Shown piece after piece: positions 6,211 to 63,372 of a stretch of 64,000 nucleotides of DNA (positions are counted from its first letter, which is position 1; each line of letters begins with the position of its first letter). The DNA is from Pristiophorus japonicus (lineage: Eukaryota). The DNA lies in contig NC_091992.1 in assembly GCF_044704955.1 (NCBI RefSeq), forward strand, positions 84,940,001 through 85,004,000. Direction: 5' to 3'. The notes under the pieces are model-generated. The model was not told where the DNA came from. It saw only the letters and a list, made by a program, of their open reading frames with translations, and did not search any database. The translations under genes and the position numbers were made by a program.

Positions 6211-6947
6211 CAACAGTGATGATTAGAACCCTTCTTTACATTTTTTCCTGGATGCAACTGCTTCAACATTCCTCCCTTACTATTTAACCTTCTCACTGAG
6301 ATAGCCAGCAAGATGTAATCAGAGGAACTTCTACACTGGCTAGGAATGTGGAATGCATCTCAAAATATCTGTGCGCAAAGCAGGCAGCAAGCAGCCTGTG
6401 ATGATCATCGGATGTGTTCCATGCTTATATTGCAATAGCTGCTAAGAGGTTATGTACCATTAGCAGATAGTTTAATTAAAATAGAGCAGTCTGACAGATT
6501 ACCCAGCGGGACACGAATTCCCACTGAAGTCCTGCCATTCATAAAACCTCATTTAAACATTAAAGTTATATTGTCTTAATTCTTAAGGAGGTCATTCTTC
6601 ACAGAAACTATCCTGGCATACGTTCGGTGAGGACGGAGCTGATTGAGATGGCACAGCTGCAGAATTTGTATTTTTTAAATTTCAAGGATCCTTAGTAAAA
6701 TGAAGTGCTCATAAATAATGAAATCCATTTGCGTTTTCTGATTGATCGCAATGTTGCTGGCCACTGTACGAAACTCCAATGTTACACAGGGAGCTCATTG
6801 CTCTGATTGAGGAGTCAAATACTAAACTGAAACAGCCACAATGCGTTGTGTTCTAGATGTTCAGCAGCGCCTGAGCAGTGTATCAGTTCGTACTCGATTT
6901 CTTCATTCCCCAGTCTCTCTCTCTCTCAAGGTGCTGATTTTGTTGAG

Positions 6948-7345
6948 TTCTTCTTCTTCTTAGGCAGCCCCCCGGAGTTGAGAATGACTTGCTTCCACAC
7001 TAAAATGAGTTTGAAGGTGACTGATGAGTCCGATGCGGGATCTACAGACCCTGTCACAGATGGGGCAGGTGGTGGTTGAAGGGACAGGTGGGTGGGGTGC
7101 TTGGTTTGTCGAACGGTCCTTCCACTATTTGTACTTGACTTCCGCGTGCTCCCGGCGAAGAAACTCGAAGTGTTTGACGTATTCTCAAATGCTTCGCCTC
7201 CACTTTGAGCCGTCTTGGGCCAGGGATTCCCAAGAGTCGATAGGAATGTTACATTATTTCAAGGAGGCTTTGAGGGCGTCCTTTTCTCTGCCCTCCTGGG
7301 ACTCACTTGCCATGATGGAGCTCGGAGTTGAGTGCTTGTTTCAAG
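6948..7345 (-). mobile_element. RTE LINE 3' fragment with (AAG)n tail
   Basis: Similar to other RTE 3' ends (GGAAGCAAGTCATTCTC); TTCTTCTTC at 6948-6960. Confidence 0.8.
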
Positions 7346-19657: not shown

Positions 19658-22305
19658 TGGTGTATGTAGCACACAAATCACTGACTCCACACAGTCTGGT
19701 GTAAGTCTAACTGCTGTGACCTTCGTCCTTTATTGTTCAGCTCCAGAGTGCCTCCCAGGTGTGGTGGTCACCCTTATATAGTCCTTCTTACAGGTACTAC
19801 CAGGGTTTCCCACCGCAGCACCCTCTGTGGTGTGGCATAGTACTTACATTACATTTAAGGTACTGGGACGATACACACACCATTACATAACATCACCTTC
19901 CCCCCCCACCTGGACGCAGGACAACGATACACACATCATTACATAACATCACACTTGTCCAACGGAAGGCAGGTGGGCATAGACAGTGCGTTAGTATGGT
20001 ACATATTATCTGGTACATTAACTGGTTATTGATTGGTAGCGGAACCTTGATTTCCTTGTTAACCGTTATCATTAATTGTACTTCATCCATTATTTTACAC
20101 AAATACAGTGGCCATTCAGCAGAAAAAAAGTAATTCTTATTATAAATTCACTATCTCACATTAACATAGCTCATTTTAGACTCGCTCTGCCAAACAGAAG
20201 TCCTTTGTGGGGACCACCTCTTTGTAAGGCCCTTTTAAGACTCCCGAGTGCATTTCCTCTTTTAGGCGCCATCTTTGATGCAGGAGGATTCCACGAGGCT
20301 TCTCCTTGGGCGCCGCCATCTTTGATGCTCTGCAGATCCGACACGATGCCGCCGCCATCTTCTTCTCCGCCGCTCCGAATGCCCTCCGCCGCCGCAGCCT
20401 CCGCTCCCCTCCGCTGCCACCTGACTTGCCGCCTCTCCAGCGGCCGCACTTGCCGCGTCCCCCGCGGCCTCCGTAGTGGCCTCCCCTGCGGCTGCCATGG
20501 CCGCCGACCGACGCTACCAGCTCCTCTGCGGGGCCTCTTCCTCTGCGGGACCCTTCCGAACCGCCGGCCCCTGGATCCCTCAGCACCCCGCCCGCAGCGC
20601 CCCGCCGACTCAACCCCCACCCCCCCTTGGGCCCCTCTGTGCAGGGCTGCTTGCCTGTGGGGGCTGAGGCTGCAGGGTCTCTGTGTGAGATCCGGGCCTG
20701 GGACTTGCCTGTGAGGGCTGGGGCTGCAGGATCTCTGTGTGAGGTCCGGGCCTGGGGCTTGCCTGTGGGGGGATTGAGGCTGCAGGATCTCTGTGTGAGA
20801 TCCGGGCCTGGGACTTGCCTGTGGGGGCTGAGGCTGCAGGATCTCTGTGTGAGGTCCGGGCCTGGGGCTTGCCTGTGGGGGGATTGAGGCTGCAGGATCT
20901 CTGTGTGAGGTCCGGGCCTGGGGCTTGCCTGTGGGGGGATTGAGGCTGCAGGATCTCTGTGTGAGGTCCGGGGCTGGGACTTGCCTGTGGGGGGATTGAG
21001 GCTGCAGGATCTCTGTGTGAGGTCCGGGGCTGGGACTTGCCTGTGGGTGGATTGAGGCTGCAGCTCCAGCTCGGTCGGCGCTGCTCTCTGGGGACCCGGG
21101 GCACGGCAGCACCCCGGGGAGCAGCAGCCTGTGGAGGAATTAAGTCTTCCCAGCTCCCACGGACCTTCCCCATCCACCTCCGGCCGAGGAGTGTCAGCCC
21201 ATCGCCTGCAACGACCCACAAAGGTAAAGCGTGCGTCCCGTCCCGGTGGGATACCTGCACCATCGCTCTGCCGAGAACAGGTATTAGTTCCTGGTGTAGG
21301 TACGCAGCTTCGCCGTGACCGGGACCAGCTTGGGTCGTGCAGCTGGGTTAATCCACAGTTTATCAAAAGTTCTCCGACTCATCAACGACGGACCCGAGCC
21401 CGTGTCCACTTCCATAGTCACAGGGACTCCGTTGATTTTTACTTCACTTATCACTGGGGGCGAATCGTCGGTGCACGTATACAGTCCAAGCACCTCATCA
21501 TCTTCTGCTTGCTCCTCGCTGGATGATGGATCATCCCCCATCTCCCCAGCCACACGGTGAGTCCGATTTCTTTTACACATACGCTGAAGGTGGCCTTTAA
21601 CGTGGCAGGTATTGCACGTGTACTCCGCAAACCTGCACCGGTGAGCCCCATGGCTTCCTCCACAGCGCCAGCATGGTGCTGGTTGATTGACCCCCCTCGG
21701 CGGACTCTGAGCTCCAGGATCCCGAGGTCCGTGCTCTCTGCCCCGGGCAGAGCCACGTTCTGCAGTTTTGTCCGTGGTGGGCGCTATCCTGTGGACAGTG
21801 CCTGCCAGGTTCGAGACTGTGTGGATTATTTGCTTGGTGCTGCAAGTCGAGGTCATATATGCCCGGCTGATGGCGATGGCCTTTGTCAGAGTGACTGTGG
21901 GTTTCGTGGCCAGCAGCTTGTGAAGGAGGTCCTTGTGGCCAATCCCCATAACAAAAACGTCCCGCAAAGCCTCGTCAAGGTGTGCCCCAAAATCACACGG
22001 CGCCGCGAGTCTCCTGAGGTCTGCAGCATATTTGGTGAAATCCTGACCCTCAGGTCTGCAGTGATGGTAAAATTTGTATCTGGCCGTGAGGATGCTCTCC
22101 TTCGGTTTAAACTGGTCACGAATGAGTTCAGTCAGCTCCTCGTATGACTTGTTCCTGGCGCTCCCAGTTGCCAGCAAATCCCTGACGAGACAGTAAACCT
22201 CATCTCCACAACTGGAGAGCAATATCGGCTTATGCTTCTCTCTCATTGCGTACGTGTCCTCCGTCAGGTCATTTGCTGTGAAGTAGTACTCGAGCCTTCC
22301 GATGA
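19658..22305 (-). mobile_element. Gypsy-derived element E2: gag-protease only, GC-rich extension, PPT and 3' LTR
   Basis: LTR 19658-19892 (TGTTATG...CATACACCA on minus; TATATAA and AATAAA); PPT 19893-19910; ORF 21284..22246 with two CCHC knuckles and EVDTGS; no RT, RNaseH or integrase. Confidence 0.9.
20650..21063. repeat. Minisatellite, ~7.5 copies of a 54/56-bp unit, inside E2
   Basis: CTTGCCTGTG recurs at 20650, 20704, 20758, 20814, 20868, 20924, 20980, 21036. Confidence 0.95.
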
Positions 22306-50888: not shown

Positions 50889-51377
50889 GAAACAAAAATC
50901 AACAGTCTCTGTATTTTTTTCCTTCTGTTTCAGGCTTATACCTTGATATATTCCAGCACCGTAATTACAGTAATGATAGTATCCATCAGCCAACTGTGAA
51001 ATACTTGTGTAATTTAGTATTACTGCATCTATAAACAGCTATCAACTCATTTCTGAGTTGAATGTATAATTATATTGATGTTCATCCAATGGCAATGGTT
51101 CTCTTTGAAACTGATGTGCCTTTTATGTTCTAAAAGTGTTTAAATTTACTGTGAACATTCAGAGCATCTCTGATCCACTGATAGGATGGAATGCAAGTTC
51201 GAAGCACATATCATTATACCAGCTTAATGTCCTTTCAAATCTTATGCTCACAGTGGGCATCAGGCTTGAAGGGGCCATGAGACTGGGCTGCTTAGGTCTT
51301 ATGTAGCTAAATTCATCTTCAAGCTGTTCATGGGTCTAGGGAGCATATGGGGCTGGGGGTGAAGACGAGCGACTAGG

Positions 51378-51810
51378 CAGGAGTGCGAAAATGGGAGGGC
51401 AGGGAGAGTGGGAGTGGGAGGGCAGGGAGAGTGGGAATGGAAGGGCAGGGAGAGTGGGAATGGGAGTACAGGGAGAGTGGGGGTGAGAGGGCAGGGAGAG
51501 TGGGAATGGGAGGGCAGAGAGAGTGGGAATGGGAGGGCAGGGAGAGTGGAAATGGGAGGGCAGGGAGAGTGGGAATGGGAGGGCAGGGAGAGTGGGAATG
51601 GAAGGGCAGGGAGAGTGGGAATGGGAGGACAGGGAGAGTGGGGGTGAGAGGGCAGGGAGAGTTGGGGTGAAAGGGCAGGGAGATTGGGAATGGGAGGGCA
51701 GGAAGAGTGGGAATGGAAGGGCAGGGAGAGTGGGGGTGAGAGGGCAGAGAGAGTGGGAATGGGAGGGCAGGGAGAGTGGGGGTGAGAGGGCAGGGAGAGC
51801 GGGAATGGGA
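51378..51810. repeat. Purine-rich minisatellite, 23-bp unit GGGAGGGCAGGGAGAGTGGGAAT
   Basis: About 18 tandem copies visible. Confidence 0.95.
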
Positions 51811-52649
51811 CGGCAGGTAGGCTGGGGGGATTGGGAGAGTAGCAATGGTTATGTGTACACGCATGTACGTGCTCTTTCTTTCCCTCTGCCCTCTCTTTCT
51901 CGCTCTCTCTGAGGCTACATCATCTATTTTAGATTTTTTGCAGACACACACAGGTCTGTGTGTGTCTGCAAACATAGAGTCGACTGGGTATTGTTAGCCA
52001 TTGGGTTTATTGCACTTCCGACTGTAAAAGCTGCCAGTTCAAAAATCAATAAGATGTCCCTACAGGAGACATCGGATTGTAGAGGTGGATTGGATTCTGA
52101 ACAACTACCTTATTTTCACATTTAAAATATCTGAAACCCATCCAGGAGAAAATTAACTTTCAGCTTTAAAGCCAACGTTATAATAGATGTGAAAATAAAT
52201 GTCACAAGAACCCTTTAACTTTACAACCCATTCAGAGATATCTGAAGCTACCGTTTTTGTGCAAACTGCACTCTTCTGCAAAGTACTTTAGTATTTTTCC
52301 CCCTGCAACACAAGTGATGAAATGCTGAGTAAACCTGCAGCTTATTAAAAGCCCATATCCCAGGGCACTTTCAGGGTAACGACCAATTCCTACATGTCAT
52401 GGGCCTATTTATCAGGCTCATTTTTGGGCTGTTCGCTCTTCTGGGCCTGTGTCATCATTTTCAAAACTTTCAGTCAGCTTTTACTAGTCTTCCAGGTTGA
52501 AGTACATGAGTGTGAAAATAATTCAAGCAGAGAAGATAAGGTTCATGGTAATAGCACAAAATAAATGTTTTTAGTCCTGACGAAATATTGGAAAATAACA
52601 AGATTCATTCTTCATATGGTTTCTTAAATGTTTTAGGATTTTTTAAAAA

Positions 52650-56057: not shown

Positions 56058-56631
56058 TTTATATGGAAAACATGCTCAAATATTGCATTATGCCAGTAAC
56101 AGGCATGAAGAAGAAAAACATATAAAACATCCCAACTTGCAAGGATTTTTAGGAGAACCATATGCGATGTTGGAACAAGATGGCGTAGGAGAGGAACCTT
56201 CTTATCTCTAACGACAAAGGGCATGATCATTCCTTCGCTCCTGAGTTGTGTCTTCGAAAAGCTACAACTCTCTTTCTGGTAAAAACTGTTGTGTCCAAGT
56301 GGCAAATAAAATTCTTTAGGGTTAGAAAATAGCTACAGTGTCTAGCTTGATTCTTGACCTTTTGTATTCTGAACAAGAGAGAGGAATCCCTACACTGCTA
56401 CAGCACTAAGACCCTGAAGTCACGACAATTTAAATAGTCACCACCGCACGCCCGGCCAAGCTGTCTGCTGTGAAATCCAGTAAAACATCACACTGTTACA
56501 ACGCTATCAAAGTGTTTTTAATTGAAAAGTTTCAGTTATCTTTTGAAGACTTGTAGATAACTGGCCCCTTTACTGCAGCTGGATTGTAATGTATGGACCT
56601 GTGAGCATGCTCACAGACTTGTGGAGATGTT

Positions 56632-57291
56632 TCTTGCCATCTGAAGGAGGTGGGGGTCCCCAATGGAGTGCTCTCTATGCGGGAGTCCTCCCTTTATTTA
56701 TTGGGAACTTGGTCTGGAGGGTGATGAATGGGGGGGGGCAGTCCCGAGCAAAAAGTTTTTAAGTCGGTTCATGGACTCTCGGGCCGCCTATAATTTCTGC
56801 GGGTCTGGATGAGTCAGTGTTCCATGTTTATGTTGAGTGTTTGAGGTTGCAGCCCCTCTTCCATTATTTGAAGGGGTTGCTCCTCAATTTCTGGCTGCAC
56901 TTCAGTCCCACACTCCTGATCTTTGGGCAGCTGGTGCAGAGGGGAGCGGGTAGGTCCAAGGGCCTCCTCGTAGGACTGCTCCTGGGCACGGCCAAGGGTG
57001 CCATCAGCTGGTCCAGGCAGCGGGCGGTCCAGGGGATCATTCAGCCCGACTGCCTGCCTCTCTTCCGTGGCTACGTTTGCGTCAGGGCGACCCGGAGATG
57101 GAGCACGCGGTATCCACCACTACGCTCGCAGCCTTCCGCGAGAGGTGGGCACCAGAGGGACTGGAGTGCATCATCACCCCGGGAACAGAATTTTAGTTTA
57201 AGTTGACATAGTTCCCAGTTCATTTGTAAATTTGTGGGTTCTAGTGCCCTTGCCAAAAGGAGGTACTTGATTTAAAGTTATATTAAAATAG
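56632..57291 (+). mobile_element. Tx1-clade non-LTR retrotransposon, 5'-truncated
   Basis: ORF2 C-terminus PQWSALY...WRV...FC..ESVFHVYVECLRLQPLF...FWLHFSP resembles Xenopus Tx1 ORF2 as recalled; TSD TTGTGGAGATGTT (56619-56631) / TTGTGGAGCTTTT (57292-57304). Confidence 0.88.
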
Positions 57292-57366
57292 TTGTGGAGC
57301 TTTTGCACTGTGAGTGGTTGCACTGTGAATGGCTTAGCCAGTCACGTGATGTTCAGAAGACTCAAT

Positions 57367-58125
57367 GGGCCCAAGTTTCAGATGTCCTCCCAGAACGGCG
57401 CACTCCAAGAGGTCTGCCTATTATAATGAAAAAAGCACCTAAAACTTACCTCGCGATTCTCCGAGTCCAGCAGGCCTGTTTCACAGTCAACGCAGTGCAG
57501 TACAAGCAGCTGGGGGCAGAGCTACAACCCTGCGCCAAAAAGAGTGTCGGCAACTGCGCGCGTGCGCAGTAGCTCCTGGCCCCCAGATTCTGTGTGCGTG
57601 TACTGCTTGCTGTGTGGGAGGGGCCAAAAGCACGCAGCCCCTAGCCCTGGTCAGGCTCCCGGTGCTCCTGAAAGGGTAGGTGAGGTAGGAACTTTTTATT
57701 TTTAATTTATTGATTTATTGATTTATTTATCATTTATTATTGATGATGGTTCTTTATTTTTAAAAATGAAATGTTTACTGCTTTGGAAAATCCTCTAACT
57801 TCCCTGGATCTCTGGATCTCTAACATCTCTGGATACCTGCGCCTGATTTCTAAAGTCTCCGCAAGGTTTTTCAGAGCGTACAAAAGTGTACACTTACTCC
57901 GTTCTAACTTAGTTTGGAGTAACTTTTCGCTGCCTAAACTTGCAAATCAGGCGTAAGTGGCTCGTAACGCCCCCTTTTGAAAAAAAAACTGTACTCAAAC
58001 GAAACTATACTAACTCACTTAAACTGGAGCAAACTAAATGATGAGAATTGCAATTTCTAAGTTATTCCATACTAAACTAATTGCTCCAAAAAAAATAGGA
58101 GCAACTCGAGTCGAAACTTGGGCCC
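57367..58125. mobile_element. PIF/Harbinger-type MITE
   Basis: Perfect 13-bp TIR GGGCCCAAGTTTC / GAAACTTGGGCCC; 3-bp TSD AAT; empty site visible in LTR copy B (61221-61250). Confidence 0.92.
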
Positions 58126-58747
58126 AATAAAACCCCAGTTAATTGAGTTCAGGTTCTCCACGATGAGGTGTGCAGTTGTGAGCCTGGTGGATGAACTGGT
58201 AGGGTTCAGTTTGATTGTTAAACCTTTGCTAATAAACCGTCTAGTTCTTTACAGCAAATGTGATGCTATGAATTCTTAAGCAGAGAACCCATGAAGCAAA
58301 AACACTACATCTATCACACTGTAGGTGATGCTATGGAAGTGAGCTGATAGACACTGATCACCTTTCATGTTTTCAAATTCTGATCTGCCACTCGGCAATA
58401 CTCATGGGAATGCCAACCAATCAGTATGCTAAGTTTAAAATACAAAGTAGCTATCCAGTGAGTGAATTGGATTCAGATTAGATATTTGGTTTAAATCAGC
58501 AGAAACTGATGCTAGCAGTTCCATTCTGGGGCTAGAACTGAGGAGCAGAAACTGCTGAATTAAAGTCAATGGTTTGGATTTCTTGGAGAACAAAAATTGC
58601 TGTAATTTCATAAGAAACAGGATCATTAATCTGCCTCGACTGAACTGGAGAGACTTGTACGGACCCAATCAGAAGCAGTTTTTAAACTGGCAACTTGCCA
58701 CCAACCCAAACAGCAACAACAACAAATTGTATTTATATTTTTTAAAG

Positions 58748-59535
58748 ATTTGGATTTATATAGCGCCTTTTGCGACCACTGGACGTCTCAAAACGCTTTA
58801 CAGCCAATGAAGTACTTTTGGAGTGTAGTCACTGTTGTAATGTAGGAAACGCAGCAGCTAATTTGCACACAACAAGCTCCCATAAACAGCAATGTGATAA
58901 TGACCAGACAATCTGTTTTTGTTATGTTTAATTTGCTTCAATTGCTGATTTTCTAATTTTAACTTGATGTATAATTATTGAATATATTATTTAATTTTGT
59001 TTAGTTATGATGATTCTGTATTATTCTGAACTTACTATTGTATACTCATTGTATTATTTACAATGTAATTTGTATTTTTTTCCTGTTTTTTCTCCTGTGT
59101 CTATCTGAGTGCACATTTTGGCTGCCACTTCGGACCGGAGCCTTTAACCTCTTTTACACTTCCTTCTCCCGCTTTTTCTTTCTTTCTCTCCCTTGTTAAT
59201 AGCTAACGTGATGTAAGGCTATTGTGAAGCTCCTTGGGATGTTTTACGACGTTAAAGGCGCTATATAAATAAAATAATAATTATTATGTTGATTGAGGGA
59301 TAAATATTGGCCAGGACACGGGGGATAACTCCCCTGCTCCTCTTTGAAATAGTGCCATGGGATTTTTCACATCCACCTGAGAGGGCCAACAGGGCCTCGG
59401 TTTAACGTCGCATCTGAAAGACGCGCACTTCCTCCGACAGTGCAGCACTCCCTCAGCACTGCACTGGAGTGTCAGCTGCCTAGATTTATGTGCTCAAGTC
59501 CCTGGAGTGGAGCTTGAACCCACGTCTTTCTGACT
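58748..59535 (-). mobile_element. Deu-domain SINE split by an L2-tailed insertion
   Basis: SINE halves 58748-58928 and 59284-59535. Confidence 0.85.
58929..59283 (+). mobile_element. AT-rich L2-type 3' UTR insertion
   Basis: TSD TTATGTT (58922-58928, 59284-59290); tail GTTAAAGGCGCTATATAAAT(AAT)n. Confidence 0.75.
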
Positions 59536-59864
59536 CCATCATGCAGGAATTTGATGTCTCAAAACTCCTTTCCTTCCACTGTAAGTGAAAATGTAGCCAT
59601 TTAAATGGCATCTGGAGTCCTTCAAACTACTGGCATAGTGTTCAACTAAGGCAAACATTCCTCAGCCTGCTGTGTAAGCTGGAGCACTCGTACAGAATTG
59701 ATAATGTGCGCAAATCCCCAACACGTGAGCATGGGCCGCGTGATATTCAGCCCCATTTGGATTATGAACCAGAATTTCCAGACTATTGCATGCAGTTTTG
59801 GCACCTCATTCCAAAAGAACATTAAAGCTCGAGAGAGTGCTCAAGGAAGAGCGATGGGATTTTA

Positions 59865-60035
59865 GGGGGTAATTTTAACCTAACTGGCCGGGCGGGAATC
59901 CCATGGGATCAGGTGGAACTCCGGTTTTACAAGCCGCCAATATCGCTCTCGGTTAACTTCAATGGAGACTACAATCGGGTGGGTGGGGGAACCAGCGTGC
60001 CTCCCGATCCCATCAGTTAGGTTAAAATTGCCCTG
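59865..60035. mobile_element. Short MITE within a decayed CR1 remnant
   Basis: 20-bp TIR GGGTAATTTTAACCTAACTG / CAGTTAGGTTAAAATTGCCC. Confidence 0.8.
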
Positions 60036-60606
60036 GTTACAAAATGAGAAAGAACAGAACTGCTTTTCACTGGAGCAACGAAGATTAAGCTTAGATATGA
60101 TGCAGCTTATAACATGCTGAAACGCCATGCCATGTGAATGTAAGCAGTTATATCATTCAAACGGCGATCACAGAATTGCAGAACATAGCTACAAAGCTAA
60201 TAAGCCTCCAGCAAGAAAGAGATTTAAAAAAAGATTTTCCCCCCACAGAGTGGTAGATACTTGGAATGGGCTCCAGCCAGGGCAGTTAAAAGCTGGAAAC
60301 ATTTCTGGGACAACGAACATGTTGTTTCTGCAGCACGGCTAGTTAGTACCAACTAATATTGGTTATAATGCTTGACCAATATCCTGTGGGGTGAACACTT
60401 GATTCATGGTGGTGTAATTTGAGAATAGAGGGTAAATTGTACGTGGCTACATTGTGGACTCTCACTTGAAGGGGACGTGGGTTGCAGAATCAGACTGTAG
60501 CTCTATCTCCAACTGATGCTTCTGTCTGTCATGGCTCCATGTAAGAAGTTAAATTAAATCCCTTTGGTCCATTTATCCCGGTGACCTAGTGTATGGAGTG
60601 AGGGTA

Positions 60607-60780
60607 AGGCTTCGATTTTAAAATTCTCATCCTTGTTTTCAAATCCCTCCATGGCCTTGCCCCTCCCTATCTCTGCAATCTCCTCCAGCCCTACAACCCT
60701 CCACGATCTCTGCGCTCCTCCAATTTTGGCCTCTTGAGCATCCCCGATTTTAATTGCTCTACCATTGGTAGCTGTGCCTA
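60607..60780 (+). mobile_element. L2 LINE fragment
   Basis: DFKILILVFKSLHGLAPPYL motif; similar to 45710-45880. Confidence 0.8.
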
Positions 60781-61291
60781 GAGCTTATAACTGAAACTTT
60801 GGAGGAGATTCTGCTTGCAAACCCTTTTAAAACAACCTAGCTGCTGGTACAAGTTAATTTACTATGGAACGCGATTGTCTGCTTGATGGACAATTACTTG
60901 CCAGTCTGCATGCTCTTTGAACTTGCATCATCTCATTACGATTCCTCTGCTTGCAGGACAAGGTGGCGCATAACAGAAGGAAACAGTCCTGAACTGGAGG
61001 CTGGACCCAGAAATTTCAAGCCATTCACTGCATTTTAGGAGGCCACGCTTGTAATATGTTTGCTTCATGGGTTCTTTGCTTAAGAATTCATAGCAACACA
61101 TTGCTGTTAAGAACTAGTTGATTTATTAGCAAAAGGTTTAACAATCAGATGACACATTGCCAGTTCATCCACCTGGCTCACAGCCACCTGCCTCGTCATG
61201 GATTCCCCCGAAACCAACTGGCTGGGGTTTTATTGAGTCTTCTGAACATCACGTGACTGGCTAAGCCACTCCCAACTCAACAACTCGACAA

Positions 61292-61768
61292 CTATTTTAG
61301 TTGCACCTATAAATCAAATTTAAATCAAGTGCCCTCTGATTAAAAGGGGCGCACCAAAACCGACACATAAATTAACTTTTAACAATAATGATTCAAATTT
61401 AAATTTGGTTGCCGGGGTGATGATGCACTCCAGTCCCTCCGGCGCCCACCTCTCGCGGAAGGCCGCGAGCGTACCGGTGGACACCGCGTGCTCCATCTCC
61501 AGGGACACCCTGGCTCGGATGTAACCGCGGAAGAGAGGCAGGCAGTCGGGCTGAACGACCTCCTCGACCGCCTGCTGCCTGGACCGGTTAATGACTGAAC
61601 TTAGCCATGCCCAGGAGCAGTCCTACGAGGAGGCCTTCCGACCTGCCCGCTCCCCTCCACACAGGGTGCCCAAAGATCAGGAGTGTGGGACTGAAGTGCA
61701 ACCAGAATTTGAGGAGCAGCCCCTTCAAATAATGGAATAGGGGCTGCAACCTCAGACATTTAACATAC
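61292..61768 (-). mobile_element. Tx1-clade LINE 3' fragment (insert B1)
   Basis: YVKCLRLQPLFHYLKGLLLKFWLHFSP...SLEMEHAVSTGTLAAFRERWAP; flanked by target copies 61279-61291 and 61769-61781. Confidence 0.9.
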
Positions 61769-61781
61769 AACAGCTCTACAA

Positions 61782-62222
61782 CTATTTTAGTTGTGCACTT
61801 TAATCGTGCCCCCTGGGAGGGGCACACTCCTTTTTGTACTTTCTTTGTATTTGTTTGTGTGTTTTTAAAAAACATTTTGTGGGTTCTTTTGGGCACTAAA
61901 ACCGTAAATTTACAAGTGCCCCCTATAAAAGGGGAGGGGGACACTAAAACCCGGCAATTAAAACAAATTAAACATTAAAACATGTAAAATCAATTTAAAA
62001 TTTGGTTGCCAGGGATGATGATGCACTCCAGTCCCTCTGGTGCCCACCTCTCGCGGAAGGCCACGAACGTACTGGTGGACACCGCGTGCTCCATCTCCAG
62101 GGACACCCTGGCTCGGATGTAACCTTTGGTTTTTTTTGAGGGCACTAAAAACACAAATTATACAAGTGCCCCCTGGCTAAAAGAGGGGAGGGGCACTAAA
62201 ACCGACAACTTAAACACATTAC
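61782..62222 (-). mobile_element. Tx1-clade LINE 3' fragment(s) (insert B2, composite)
   Basis: ORF2 end plus 3' UTR 61782-62124 and an extra UTR piece 62125-62222; flanked by target copies 61769-61781 and 62223-62235. Confidence 0.85.
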
Positions 62223-63372
62223 AACAGCTCTACAAACCTGTGAGCATACTCACAGGTACATACATTACAACCCTCAACATCACTGGTTGTGAGAACGTAG
62301 AATCATTAGGGGAGGGTAAGGATGGAGCCCTCTCCAAAGCTCAGGGCTAGGACTATGCTTATCTTAATTCGTGCCCTCCTATTCTCTCTCTATGCCTCTC
62401 ACACTCACACTCAGTCACACATAGGTGCTCACTCAACCACAAAACTATCACACTCTGTAATTTGCAATGGAGGTCCTGTTAGAAGATCTCTCTTGCAGTC
62501 AGCATTCCAACACATGTTTCTCTTCTGTATCTACAGACTGGAAGAACAGCCTGCTAACATGATGGGTGCACACAGACACACACACCAACACTTCAGTGCA
62601 TCCTTCATCATTCTCACTAACTATCACAGGCACCAGCGCAGCGACATACACCCTTAAGGTTGCAGATAATGACCATGAGGCAGCAGCACCAGATGATGCC
62701 CAGGGCATGAATGAGAAGGAGCCAGTTGTGGTGGTAGAAAGGGAGCGGTGACCTGATGGCGAGAGCGCCAACTTACTTTCATCCACTGCTGCAGTGCCTG
62801 GGCATTCTGACCTCACAGGGCCCGCTTAGAGAAGGAGATTACTGTCCGAGCAGGGTTGTCTGCAAGGCACGTGGGCGATTTGAAACCCCTTAACTCGTAC
62901 TTTGAATGGGATTTGCCATGTTAGTGAACATTCTGTGTGAGAGAGAGTGCACTACTGGCGGGTGATCAGGTTTGAAATTTTAAGGGTGGTCTGACCCGGA
63001 AACCACCTCGTTTAGGAACTCCTGAATTCTCCAATCCCTGCACACGCAATTGCTGTTGGCGAAAGAATTTCCAGGCTATTATTCTAAAAATGATCTTACC
63101 TTGAATTATACAAGGTTGGTTATACGATGTCACCCAATACTTGATTAACTGTTGTACTGACTCCTTACTTTTACATAATGATTGATAATTGCACACAAAT
63201 TTTTTTCCTTTTCTTTTTCTACCTATGCTAGTGGAACCTTTGCCCAATCATCGTGTTCCACACCTCCCTAAATCTTTTGTGGTTCCCTCCCATTGCACAG
63301 AGCATCTTGATGCATTCCAGTGAGGTTGGGGCTTGACCACTCTGGCCCATTCCAAAGTAGGAACTAATTATT

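Follow-up and report, generated by a model that had tools for sequence, protein, structure and literature searches.

A Tx1-clade LINE family at one site of an LTR, with sister subfamilies in CR1 and a likely upstream targeting signal

A family of Tx1-clade LINEs occupies one fixed position in a 275-bp LTR, both in the analysed window (a 64-kb stretch of DNA) and across the genome, and near-identical sister subfamilies are located at two sites in CR1 LINEs (CR1a and CR1b). As a whole, independent insertions of a Tx1-clade element at a fixed LTR site, a choice of that site in two parts and joining of new copies to resident ones form a reading that we regard as reasonably probable. A more specific version is tentative, with slightly less than an even chance of being right: an APE-type LINE would read an upstream hexamer outside its endonuclease, or through a host factor, and would thereby have reached two CR1 sites from a Gypsy LTR while its nuclease stayed nearly the same, stacking onto residents and forming chimeras between subfamilies.

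Target site and inserted copies

Two solo LTRs in the window, LTR A and LTR B, carry inserts that begin immediately after LTR position 47. The coordinates given in the initial annotation, including five copies of the target, were all correct, and the features are as follows:

56585..56631, + strand: solo LTR A, positions 1-47, containing the 5' target copy at 56619-56631
56596..56601, + strand: upstream hexamer position (LTR A positions 12-17), at a distance of 18 bases from the inferred nick
56632..57291, + strand: insert A, a 660-bp 5'-truncated Tx1 copy of the older subfamily with the ORF2 C-terminus and a short 3' UTR
57292..57305, + strand: 3' copy of the insert A target-site duplication, from sequence
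57306..57366, + strand: LTR A continuation to an AT-rich poly-A-like signal, containing a local 15-bp duplication
57367..58125, no strand assigned: 759-bp non-coding element splitting LTR A, a bystander with 13-bp terminal inverted repeats and a 3-bp duplication
58126..58309, + strand: LTR A 3' part, matching LTR B 61050-61235 at 81%
61050..61278, - strand: LTR B 3' part
61279..61291, - strand: LTR B 3' target copy, from sequence
61292..61768, - strand: insert B2, a 477-bp 5'-truncated Tx1 copy, matching positions 6563-6953 of full-length copy L225 at 90%
61769..61781, - strand: middle target copy at the B1/B2 boundary, from sequence
61782..62222, - strand: insert B1, 441 bp, a 3' UTR fragment followed by the ORF2 end and a long 3' UTR
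62223..62269, - strand: solo LTR B, positions 1-47, containing the 5' target copy at 62223-62235

All three inserts lie in the orientation of the LTR, lack poly-A and have a common 8-base end. On a full-length copy of 7158 bp their 5' ends fall at 6365, 6947 and 6555, in agreement with the differing truncation points described initially. Insert A matches L225 positions 6365-6928 at 85% and shares 51% amino acid identity with Xenopus Tx1L over 78 aa, while B1 is composite, with 97 bp of 3' UTR followed by a piece running from the ORF2 end to the tail. The outer 5-bp duplication is degenerate for LTR A (3/5 bases, 56580-56584 versus 58310-58314) and agrees at 4/5 bases for LTR B. At the hexamer position of each LTR (62253-62258 in LTR B) the first base is unlike the common form. 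We take the 759-bp inverted-repeat element in LTR A to be a Harbinger-like MITE. A search of the 64-kb window found no further piece of the inserts' Tx1 family, as had been stated.

The inserts are 5'-truncated Tx1-clade LINEs, as first proposed, and their full-length relatives group with Xenopus Tx1L: an RT tree (24 rows, rooted at the midpoint without an L1 outgroup) places them with Xenopus Tx1L and with turtle and sturgeon elements at a support of 98/96. ORF2 has the Tx1 layout of an N-terminal APE endonuclease, an RT and a C-terminal zinc-binding region, and its best PDB matches are L1 ORF2p. By Pfam, PF03372 is above cut-off in the open frame of copy L226, PF00078 is above cut-off in L225 and PF13966 falls just under it; the endonuclease was missed in the frameshifted fragments of copy L155. 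A candidate CCHC zinc knuckle of ORF1 reaches 19.3 bits in L155 (PF00098), below the cut-off of 20.8, and PF00098 was not matched by Pfam in the 701-aa L225 frame. Two further Tx1-clade traits, 5' truncation and target-site duplication, are both present.

Genome-wide, 3' ends of the window's type adjoin the target in 27 of 30 matches, compared with the threshold for a target-specific Tx1 family, over 20% of flanks within a single repeat (Kojima, 2015, PMC4494074), and the alternative that most 3' ends lie in unrelated sequence fails. The target is found within 3 mismatches at 26/30 3' ends in a sample overlapping this set, and the remaining 4 keep the first 5 target bases. On one contig, the initial 100 exact sites, taken unselected, comprise 54 Tx1-filled, 40 empty and 6 other sites. 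Exact matches across the genome comprise 1246 filled junctions and 1309 empty sites against 0 in reversed-pattern controls, so the site association is not due to chance. The target-site duplication is 14-17 bp long and mostly exceeds 13 bp, at least one further LTR base being included in 53/60 array-terminal units and at least two in 45/60. Because 5' breakpoints vary widely, with 53 distinct ones among 56 mapped array-terminal units, the insertions are independent, as had been favoured over a common breakpoint. When the wider lineage is sampled by its endonuclease (n = 20), 2 copies lie in the LTR, 17 in CR1 and 1 is unclear.

The target is a real LTR, as it was originally called, because two-LTR elements with RT, RNase H and integrase exist. 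It has short inverted ends, a 5-bp duplication within 1 mismatch flanks 16 of the 23 resolvable solo copies, and paired LTRs flank PBS, pol and PPT, the three two-LTR elements having PBS-like and purine-rich ends in common. These elements rule out a non-autonomous DNA transposon as the target, a candidate in view of the first 60 LTR loci, which are without a common internal flank. At locus L153 the order RT, RNase H, integrase corresponds to PF00078, PF17917 and PF00665, of which PF17917 alone is above cut-off. From domain order only, the target element may be Gypsy-type, an order that is not diagnostic against BEL/Pao elements, in which RT, RNase H and integrase follow one another as in Ty3/Gypsy.

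The upstream hexamer and the CR1 sister subfamilies

One hexamer is found 18-19 bases upstream of the cut at all three targets. Among LTR sites that are exact over 28 bases around the nick, this motif, chosen post hoc, is associated with occupancy: 32/44 sites with an intact hexamer are filled (12 empty) versus 22/50 with an altered one (28 empty; OR 3.4, p = 0.007), and a neighbouring control pentamer has no significant effect (p = 0.28). A second, partly overlapping sample contains the intact hexamer in 27/57 filled versus 7/42 empty sites (p = 0.002). In CR1, 12/12 filled CR1a 5' junctions have the hexamer at a distance of 18 bases upstream; at CR1b junctions the distance is 19 bases in 4/7, the exact word being missing at the other 3. 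These associations make it likely that a hexameric signal at this upstream distance of 18 bases contributes to site choice. Since altered sites are still filled and both window LTRs deviate at the first base, the hexamer is either no absolute requirement or underwent later mutation.

Changes at the third position of the hexamer look neutral. The CR1a match does no more than mirror the CR1 consensus, the hexamer being present at 4 empty sites too. A palindrome of 20 bp located directly upstream of the nick in the LTR was also considered as a signal and set aside, no such palindrome being seen at the listed CR1 sites.

The three subfamilies are ca. 96-98% identical in ORF2 protein and occupy three different sites, differing in 3' UTR and target and hardly in endonuclease. 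In the 240 N-terminal residues of ORF2, the majority sequences of the LTR and CR1b groups show 1 unfixed difference and those of the LTR and CR1a groups 6, with 5-6 endonuclease changes nearly fixed in CR1a copies; these endonuclease sequences represent the younger full-length subfamily and not the older one of the window. Endonuclease differences between subfamilies include G13S, C67S, A74G, S159C and I201V. The hairpin loop is identical between groups. Endonuclease-region trees do not separate LTR and CR1b copies, have weak support and do not resolve target monophyly. The initial reading of the LTR as the target stands for the window family; it had missed the CR1-using sisters, the likely upstream targeting component and the formation of stacks.

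Insertion at the LTR site likely proceeds by target-primed reverse transcription, and site choice probably has two components, namely a short word where the nick is made and the hexamer 18 bases upstream. Reading of the hexamer would fall not to the catalytic face of the endonuclease but to a different region of ORF2p or to a DNA-binding protein of the host, by analogy with R2 and its upstream motif. Descendants could have shifted from the LTR to the two CR1 sites with 1 to 6 endonuclease changes, a move that would be allowed by the same hexamer at a like distance, read outside the catalytic face.

Specificity of the endonuclease alone is an unlikely explanation. The APE domain would read ca. 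10-20 bp around the nick, its small number of residue changes or a relaxed consensus would account for three targets, and the hexamer association would arise secondarily from the age or subfamily of the LTRs. This is in line with the nearly fixed changes of CR1a copies, with the pair of purines located 3-4 bases ahead of the nick and the T after it that the three targets have in common, and with the in vitro sequence specificity of the Tx1L endonuclease, which alone nicks its own site almost exclusively according to the accessible part of the report (PMC1950540). However, the LTR and CR1b groups use different sites with practically the same endonuclease, and occupancy tracks the hexamer, with no significant effect of the control pentamer, even though the bases around the nick are exact.

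RNA-guided priming appears less probable still, although it may act together with two-part site choice. Read-through RNA would pair via the flank with the nicked strand and each subfamily would inherit its target, a mode known from R1Bm and SART1. The precise 3' junctions, which lack poly-A, agree with this, as do the subfamily differences in 3' UTR and target, the absence of the older 3' end type from the first 100 CR1 junctions (0/100) and the need of R1Bm for downstream target sequence in accurate priming, as given in the accessible text (PMC7265360). RNA guidance does not predict, however, that a motif on the upstream side of the nick matters, and unrelated RNAs, with 5S-like and tRNA-like heads joined to a Tx1 tail, are inserted at the same CR1 site.

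Stacked inserts and shared 5' breakpoints

Adjacent inserts have the same 5' breakpoint in 21/37 pairs versus 31/4129 cross-locus pairs. Despite equal breakpoints, stacked neighbours are different insertions; among the 18 pairs of sufficient length for comparison, identity is 78-95% and the 3' UTRs differ. The longer, younger-type 3' UTR is located upstream in 17/22 pairs, and by divergence the upstream copy is the younger in 17/25 (p = 0.11). B1 and B2 of the window have different 5' breakpoints. At locus L224, a duplication starting at the nick is ca. 100% identical over 2.1 kb, of which 219 bp are CR1, and ca. 89% identical beyond, pointing to possible homologous joining onto a resident copy. 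In only 1/18 pairs are shared private mutations concentrated towards the 5' end, and a long copied 5' tract, seen in 1/18 pairs plus L224, was rejected as a feature of every stacked pair.

Newcomers would insert in front of residents because the upstream context of the LTR would be kept by the 5'-most target copy only. Newcomer cDNA would often pair with the homologous resident, whose 5' breakpoint would thereby be inherited. In chimeric L1 insertions, cDNA pairs with homologous insertion-site DNA to make the 5' junction. That filled LTRs instead stem from one or a few ancestral insertions copied with the LTR element, with stacks as later tandem duplications between flanking direct repeats, would fit the equal 5' ends of neighbours, the ABAB pattern of one array and some CR1-site loci that are identical to one another, but is highly improbable and largely refuted by the many distinct breakpoints, the divergence of neighbours with their different 3' UTRs and the solo LTRs' own 5-bp duplications.

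Comparison with known systems

The endonuclease domain is usually regarded as the only target determinant in APE retrotransposons, according to the accessible part of one account (PMC10499050). Known families have diverged too far from one another for a comparison that would show how site-specific elements switch targets. Three subfamilies at three sites, thousands of filled and empty sites and few residue differences make swap tests possible. If true, hexamer-guided hops from the LTR to CR1 would provide a natural series for target change in site-specific retrotransposons, and the stacks would be a genomic record of homology-formed 5' joints, a step relevant to retrotransposon-based gene insertion.

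LTR targeting by Tx1 elements is not new. Tx1-8_Crp and Tx1-4_AMi, crocodilian families of the Keno/Tx1-Mar group, prefer specific LTR retrotransposons, and relatives in the same group target other transposons (Kojima, 2015, PMC4494074). Compared by description only, they too are Tx1-clade LINEs in LTRs; an upstream motif, a target in CR1 and 5' breakpoints in common are all absent from the accessible part of that description. The habit was already in print; as for the family itself, a literature search, with most subscription papers, Repbase Reports and Dfam outside its coverage, found no account of it, of a CR1-targeting Tx1 or of a Tx1 upstream motif.

Tx1L (YTX2_XENLA, P0007), which groups with the present element and turtle elements in the RT tree, likewise inserts in another transposon. 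It is 48% identical to the CR1b sister over 97% of a 1149-aa ORF2 piece and 45% identical to an LTR-resident copy over the endonuclease region. In contrast, its target is the piggyBac-type Tx1D and its hairpin loop is 3 residues longer.

R2Bm would be similar by inference in combining a fixed-distance upstream motif with a nick word, one added base being tolerated (RUM plus RASIN, accessible part of PMC10499050). R2 has a restriction-like endonuclease and N-terminal ZnF/Myb domains, whereas the present element has an APE endonuclease and Pfam found no N-terminal ZnF/Myb domain in it. R2-like bipartite recognition was set aside for this element, which is APE-type and no R2, and in which the upstream motif is a statistical association. 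In the 'Anneal' 5' junctions of R2/PRINT, as described in the accessible text (PMC11331408), cDNA pairs with homologous insertion-site DNA, as proposed here; in the present stacks, by contrast, a resident copy on the downstream side of the nick would supply the homology, with duplication of the intervening DNA and equal 5' ends as the outcome.

Tx1 inserts and their target LTR

The initial annotation described two short-repeat copies in opposite orientation, each broken after position 47, with copies of a 13-bp target flanking every insert and the inserts oriented as the repeat, sharing an 8-base 3' end and lacking poly-A. All of this is borne out by the sequence. The two LTRs are approximately 81-86% identical in matched parts, and the relevant window features are:

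From 56585, plus strand: LTR A, with a single insert of 660 bp (insert A)
From 62269, minus strand: LTR B, with two inserts of 441 and 477 bp (B1 and B2)
56597-56616 and 62236-62255: 20-bp palindrome between hexamer and nick of the LTR
57367-58125: 759-bp inverted-repeat element with a 3-bp duplication, interrupting LTR A at its poly-A-like signal
20644-21063 and 51376-51848: local tandem-repeat arrays

The remainder of the window is densely filled with dispersed repeats. At one other locus (L022) a different insertion occupies the same LTR position as the 759-bp element, and at two more (L011 and L023) insertions lie farther along the LTR.

Mapped to a 7158-bp full-length copy (L225), the window inserts begin at positions 6365, 6947 and 6555. 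B1 is a composite of a 3' UTR fragment fused to an ORF2-end piece. The rest of the window has no match to L225, in agreement with the initial annotation, which noticed no further Tx1. The assignment to Tx1 itself is upheld by domain set, identity to Xenopus Tx1L and tree placement: full-length LTR-resident copies (6.6-7.2 kb) encode an APE endonuclease, RT and a C-terminal zinc region, identity to Tx1L is 45% in the endonuclease region and 51% over 78 aa for insert A, and in the tree the RT clusters with those of Tx1L and turtle elements (support 98/96). LTR residents fall in two age classes: divergence from the full-length majority is about 10.5% for the window's 3'-end type and about 4% for the younger type.

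The target is a true LTR, as evidenced by inverted ends, 5-bp duplications and two-LTR elements. Empty copies are about 275 bp long with inverted ends of 10 bp, and 16 of 23 resolvable copies (7 of 30 not being resolved) are flanked by a 5-bp duplication with at most one mismatch. A search for purine tracts ahead of the LTR 5' end yielded 30 loci at 21 distinct places. Three of these have upstream sequence in common; they are two-LTR elements in decay that share a primer-site-like start and a purine-rich end. One of them shows the order RT, RNase H, integrase, with RNase H alone passing the Pfam cut-off. The element is likely Gypsy, BEL/Pao being the alternative assignment. In the two-LTR element at L153 both LTRs are filled, and at least four units are stacked in the 5' LTR. 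At G000 C17:111084591-111173614, five LTR starts with identical flank, approximately 21.5-24.5 kb apart, form a large tandem segmental repeat.

Site fidelity and sister subfamilies in CR1

The genome spans 5.9 Gb. Of the best 30 among 40 listed matches to the insert A 3' end (window copy included), 27 run directly into the target; the other three are followed by the first 6 target bases, a later LTR part and unrelated DNA, respectively. An exact 23-mer of this 3' end occurs 57 times, with the exact target next in 35. Among 30 of these loci checked, which overlap the previous sample at several loci, 26 carry the target within 3 mismatches and four keep its first 5 bases only. Genome-wide, exact 34-base patterns match 1246 times for the filled junction and 1309 times for the empty site (controls 0). 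Of 30 LTR copies found via the LTR 3' part, 19 are filled. On the largest contig, the first 100 sites with an exact target core comprise 54 filled by Tx1, 40 empty and 6 other sites. Target-site duplications are mostly 14-17 bp long. The proposed independence of the insertions is confirmed by 53 distinct 5' breakpoints among 56 mapped array-terminal units. Overall, the observation of a Tx1 family targeting one LTR site is real and its interpretation correct. Four loci (L201, L210, L308 and L158) carry mini-insertions in which 11-25 bases of nothing but the Tx1 3' tip are accompanied by a full duplication, which we read as priming aborted nearly at once.

A second sampling by endonuclease (20 of 40 hits fetched) returned 2 copies in the LTR, 7 and 10 at two homologous CR1 sites and 1 unclear. 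The two sites (CR1a and CR1b) belong to different CR1 LINE families and fall in the part encoding the RT C-terminal region, with the residents antisense to CR1. Exact CR1 junctions number 11,987 genome-wide, a count inflated by some identical loci. ORF2 majorities built from 7 LTR, 9 CR1b and 8 CR1a copies (one copy, L155, left out) differ pairwise at 24, 49 and 34 of 1299 residues. Over the N-terminal 240 residues, a single position, which is not fixed, separates LTR from CR1b, and six positions separate LTR from CR1a. None of the differences in the endonuclease region lies inside the hairpin loop, which influences nicking in L1 (PMC1950540). Because mean divergence from the own majority declines (3.8%, 2.2%, 1.7%), the sequences suggest the order LTR, CR1b, CR1a; trees are loosely consistent with it, with weak support and no outgroup. 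At their 5' ends, CR1-resident copies open with a stretch similar to the LTR target, which a descent from LTR residents would predict.

In L175, the stack at the CR1a site includes, upstream of the full-length copy, a unit whose head resembles 5S rRNA and whose short tail is Tx1-like, either a single chimera or a SINE3-like family. In L217 and L209, presumably tRNA-like sequences are fused to Tx1 tails or bodies at CR1a. Two groups of identical filled CR1 junctions near the largest contig's start (L193, L194, L195, L198, L202; and L192, L196, L199, L203) represent either duplicated blocks or CR1 copies mobilised along with the insert.

An upstream hexamer and stacked insertions

A hexamer at LTR positions 12-17, which we take to be an E-box-type word, lies 18 bases ahead of the nick, assuming that the element's last base is the shared T. 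The identical hexamer is found 18 bases before the CR1a nick in 12 of 12 filled junctions and also in 4 empty sites, and, at CR1b, 4 of 7 junctions have it 19 bases before the nick (after exclusion of 3 spurious pattern matches). Among LTRs, 27 of 57 filled copies keep the hexamer intact, against 7 of 42 empty ones (p=0.002). In a sample not selected for state (n=44 + 50, omitting 6 'other' sites), 32 of 44 hexamer-intact sites are filled vs 22 of 50 altered sites (p=0.007; control pentamer, p=0.28). Against a strict rule speak these many filled altered sites, the third base, which seems free, and both window LTRs, which deviate at the first base. The Tx1L endonuclease being sequence-specific by itself (PMC1950540) also counts against such a rule.

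Stacking was analyzed in 68 arrays (110 units; 42 adjacent pairs, 37 mapped, one breakpoint placed by eye). Adjacent units share a 5' breakpoint within 3 bases in 21 of 37 pairs vs 31 of 4129 cross-locus pairs; the window B1/B2 pair does not. The 18 adjacent pairs of sufficient length are 78-95% identical, with differing 3' UTRs and few private mutations in common, and are therefore not tandem duplicates. A route to stacks with equal 5' ends is likely displayed by L224, where a CR1 fragment within an old LTR-resident Tx1 was struck at its CR1a site. The duplication runs from the nick through 219 bp of CR1 and about 1.9 kb of resident at approximately 100% identity; beyond that, identity is about 89%. 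Downstream of the nick, new cDNA would pair with the resident, to which it is homologous, and the resident would serve to complete synthesis of the new copy. Newer Tx1 types tend to lie upstream in stacks; the upstream unit has the longer UTR in 17 of 22 pairs and is the less diverged one in 17 of 25 (p=0.11).

Comparison with known systems

In the literature searched, Repbase and Dfam apart, we found no account of this Tx1 family, of any Tx1 that targets CR1 or of upstream motifs used by APE elements. Tx1 insertion into LTRs, taken alone, is already known in kind: according to Kojima 2015 (PMC4494074), crocodilian Tx1-8_Crp and Tx1-4_AMi prefer LTR retrotransposons, Tx1-Mar prefers a Mariner element and Tx1L resides in Tx1D. 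Also described are two-part target recognition in R2 (PMC10499050), flank-aided priming in R1Bm/SART1 (PMC7265360) and 5' junctions formed by annealing in R2 (PMC11331408). What goes beyond known LTR targeting is the likely upstream signal, the proposed switch of targets and the stacks, probably joined by homology. That an APE-type LINE chooses sites via an upstream hexamer, hops from LTR to CR1 sites and stacks by cDNA joining onto the resident is a tentative reading, to which we give slightly less than an even chance.
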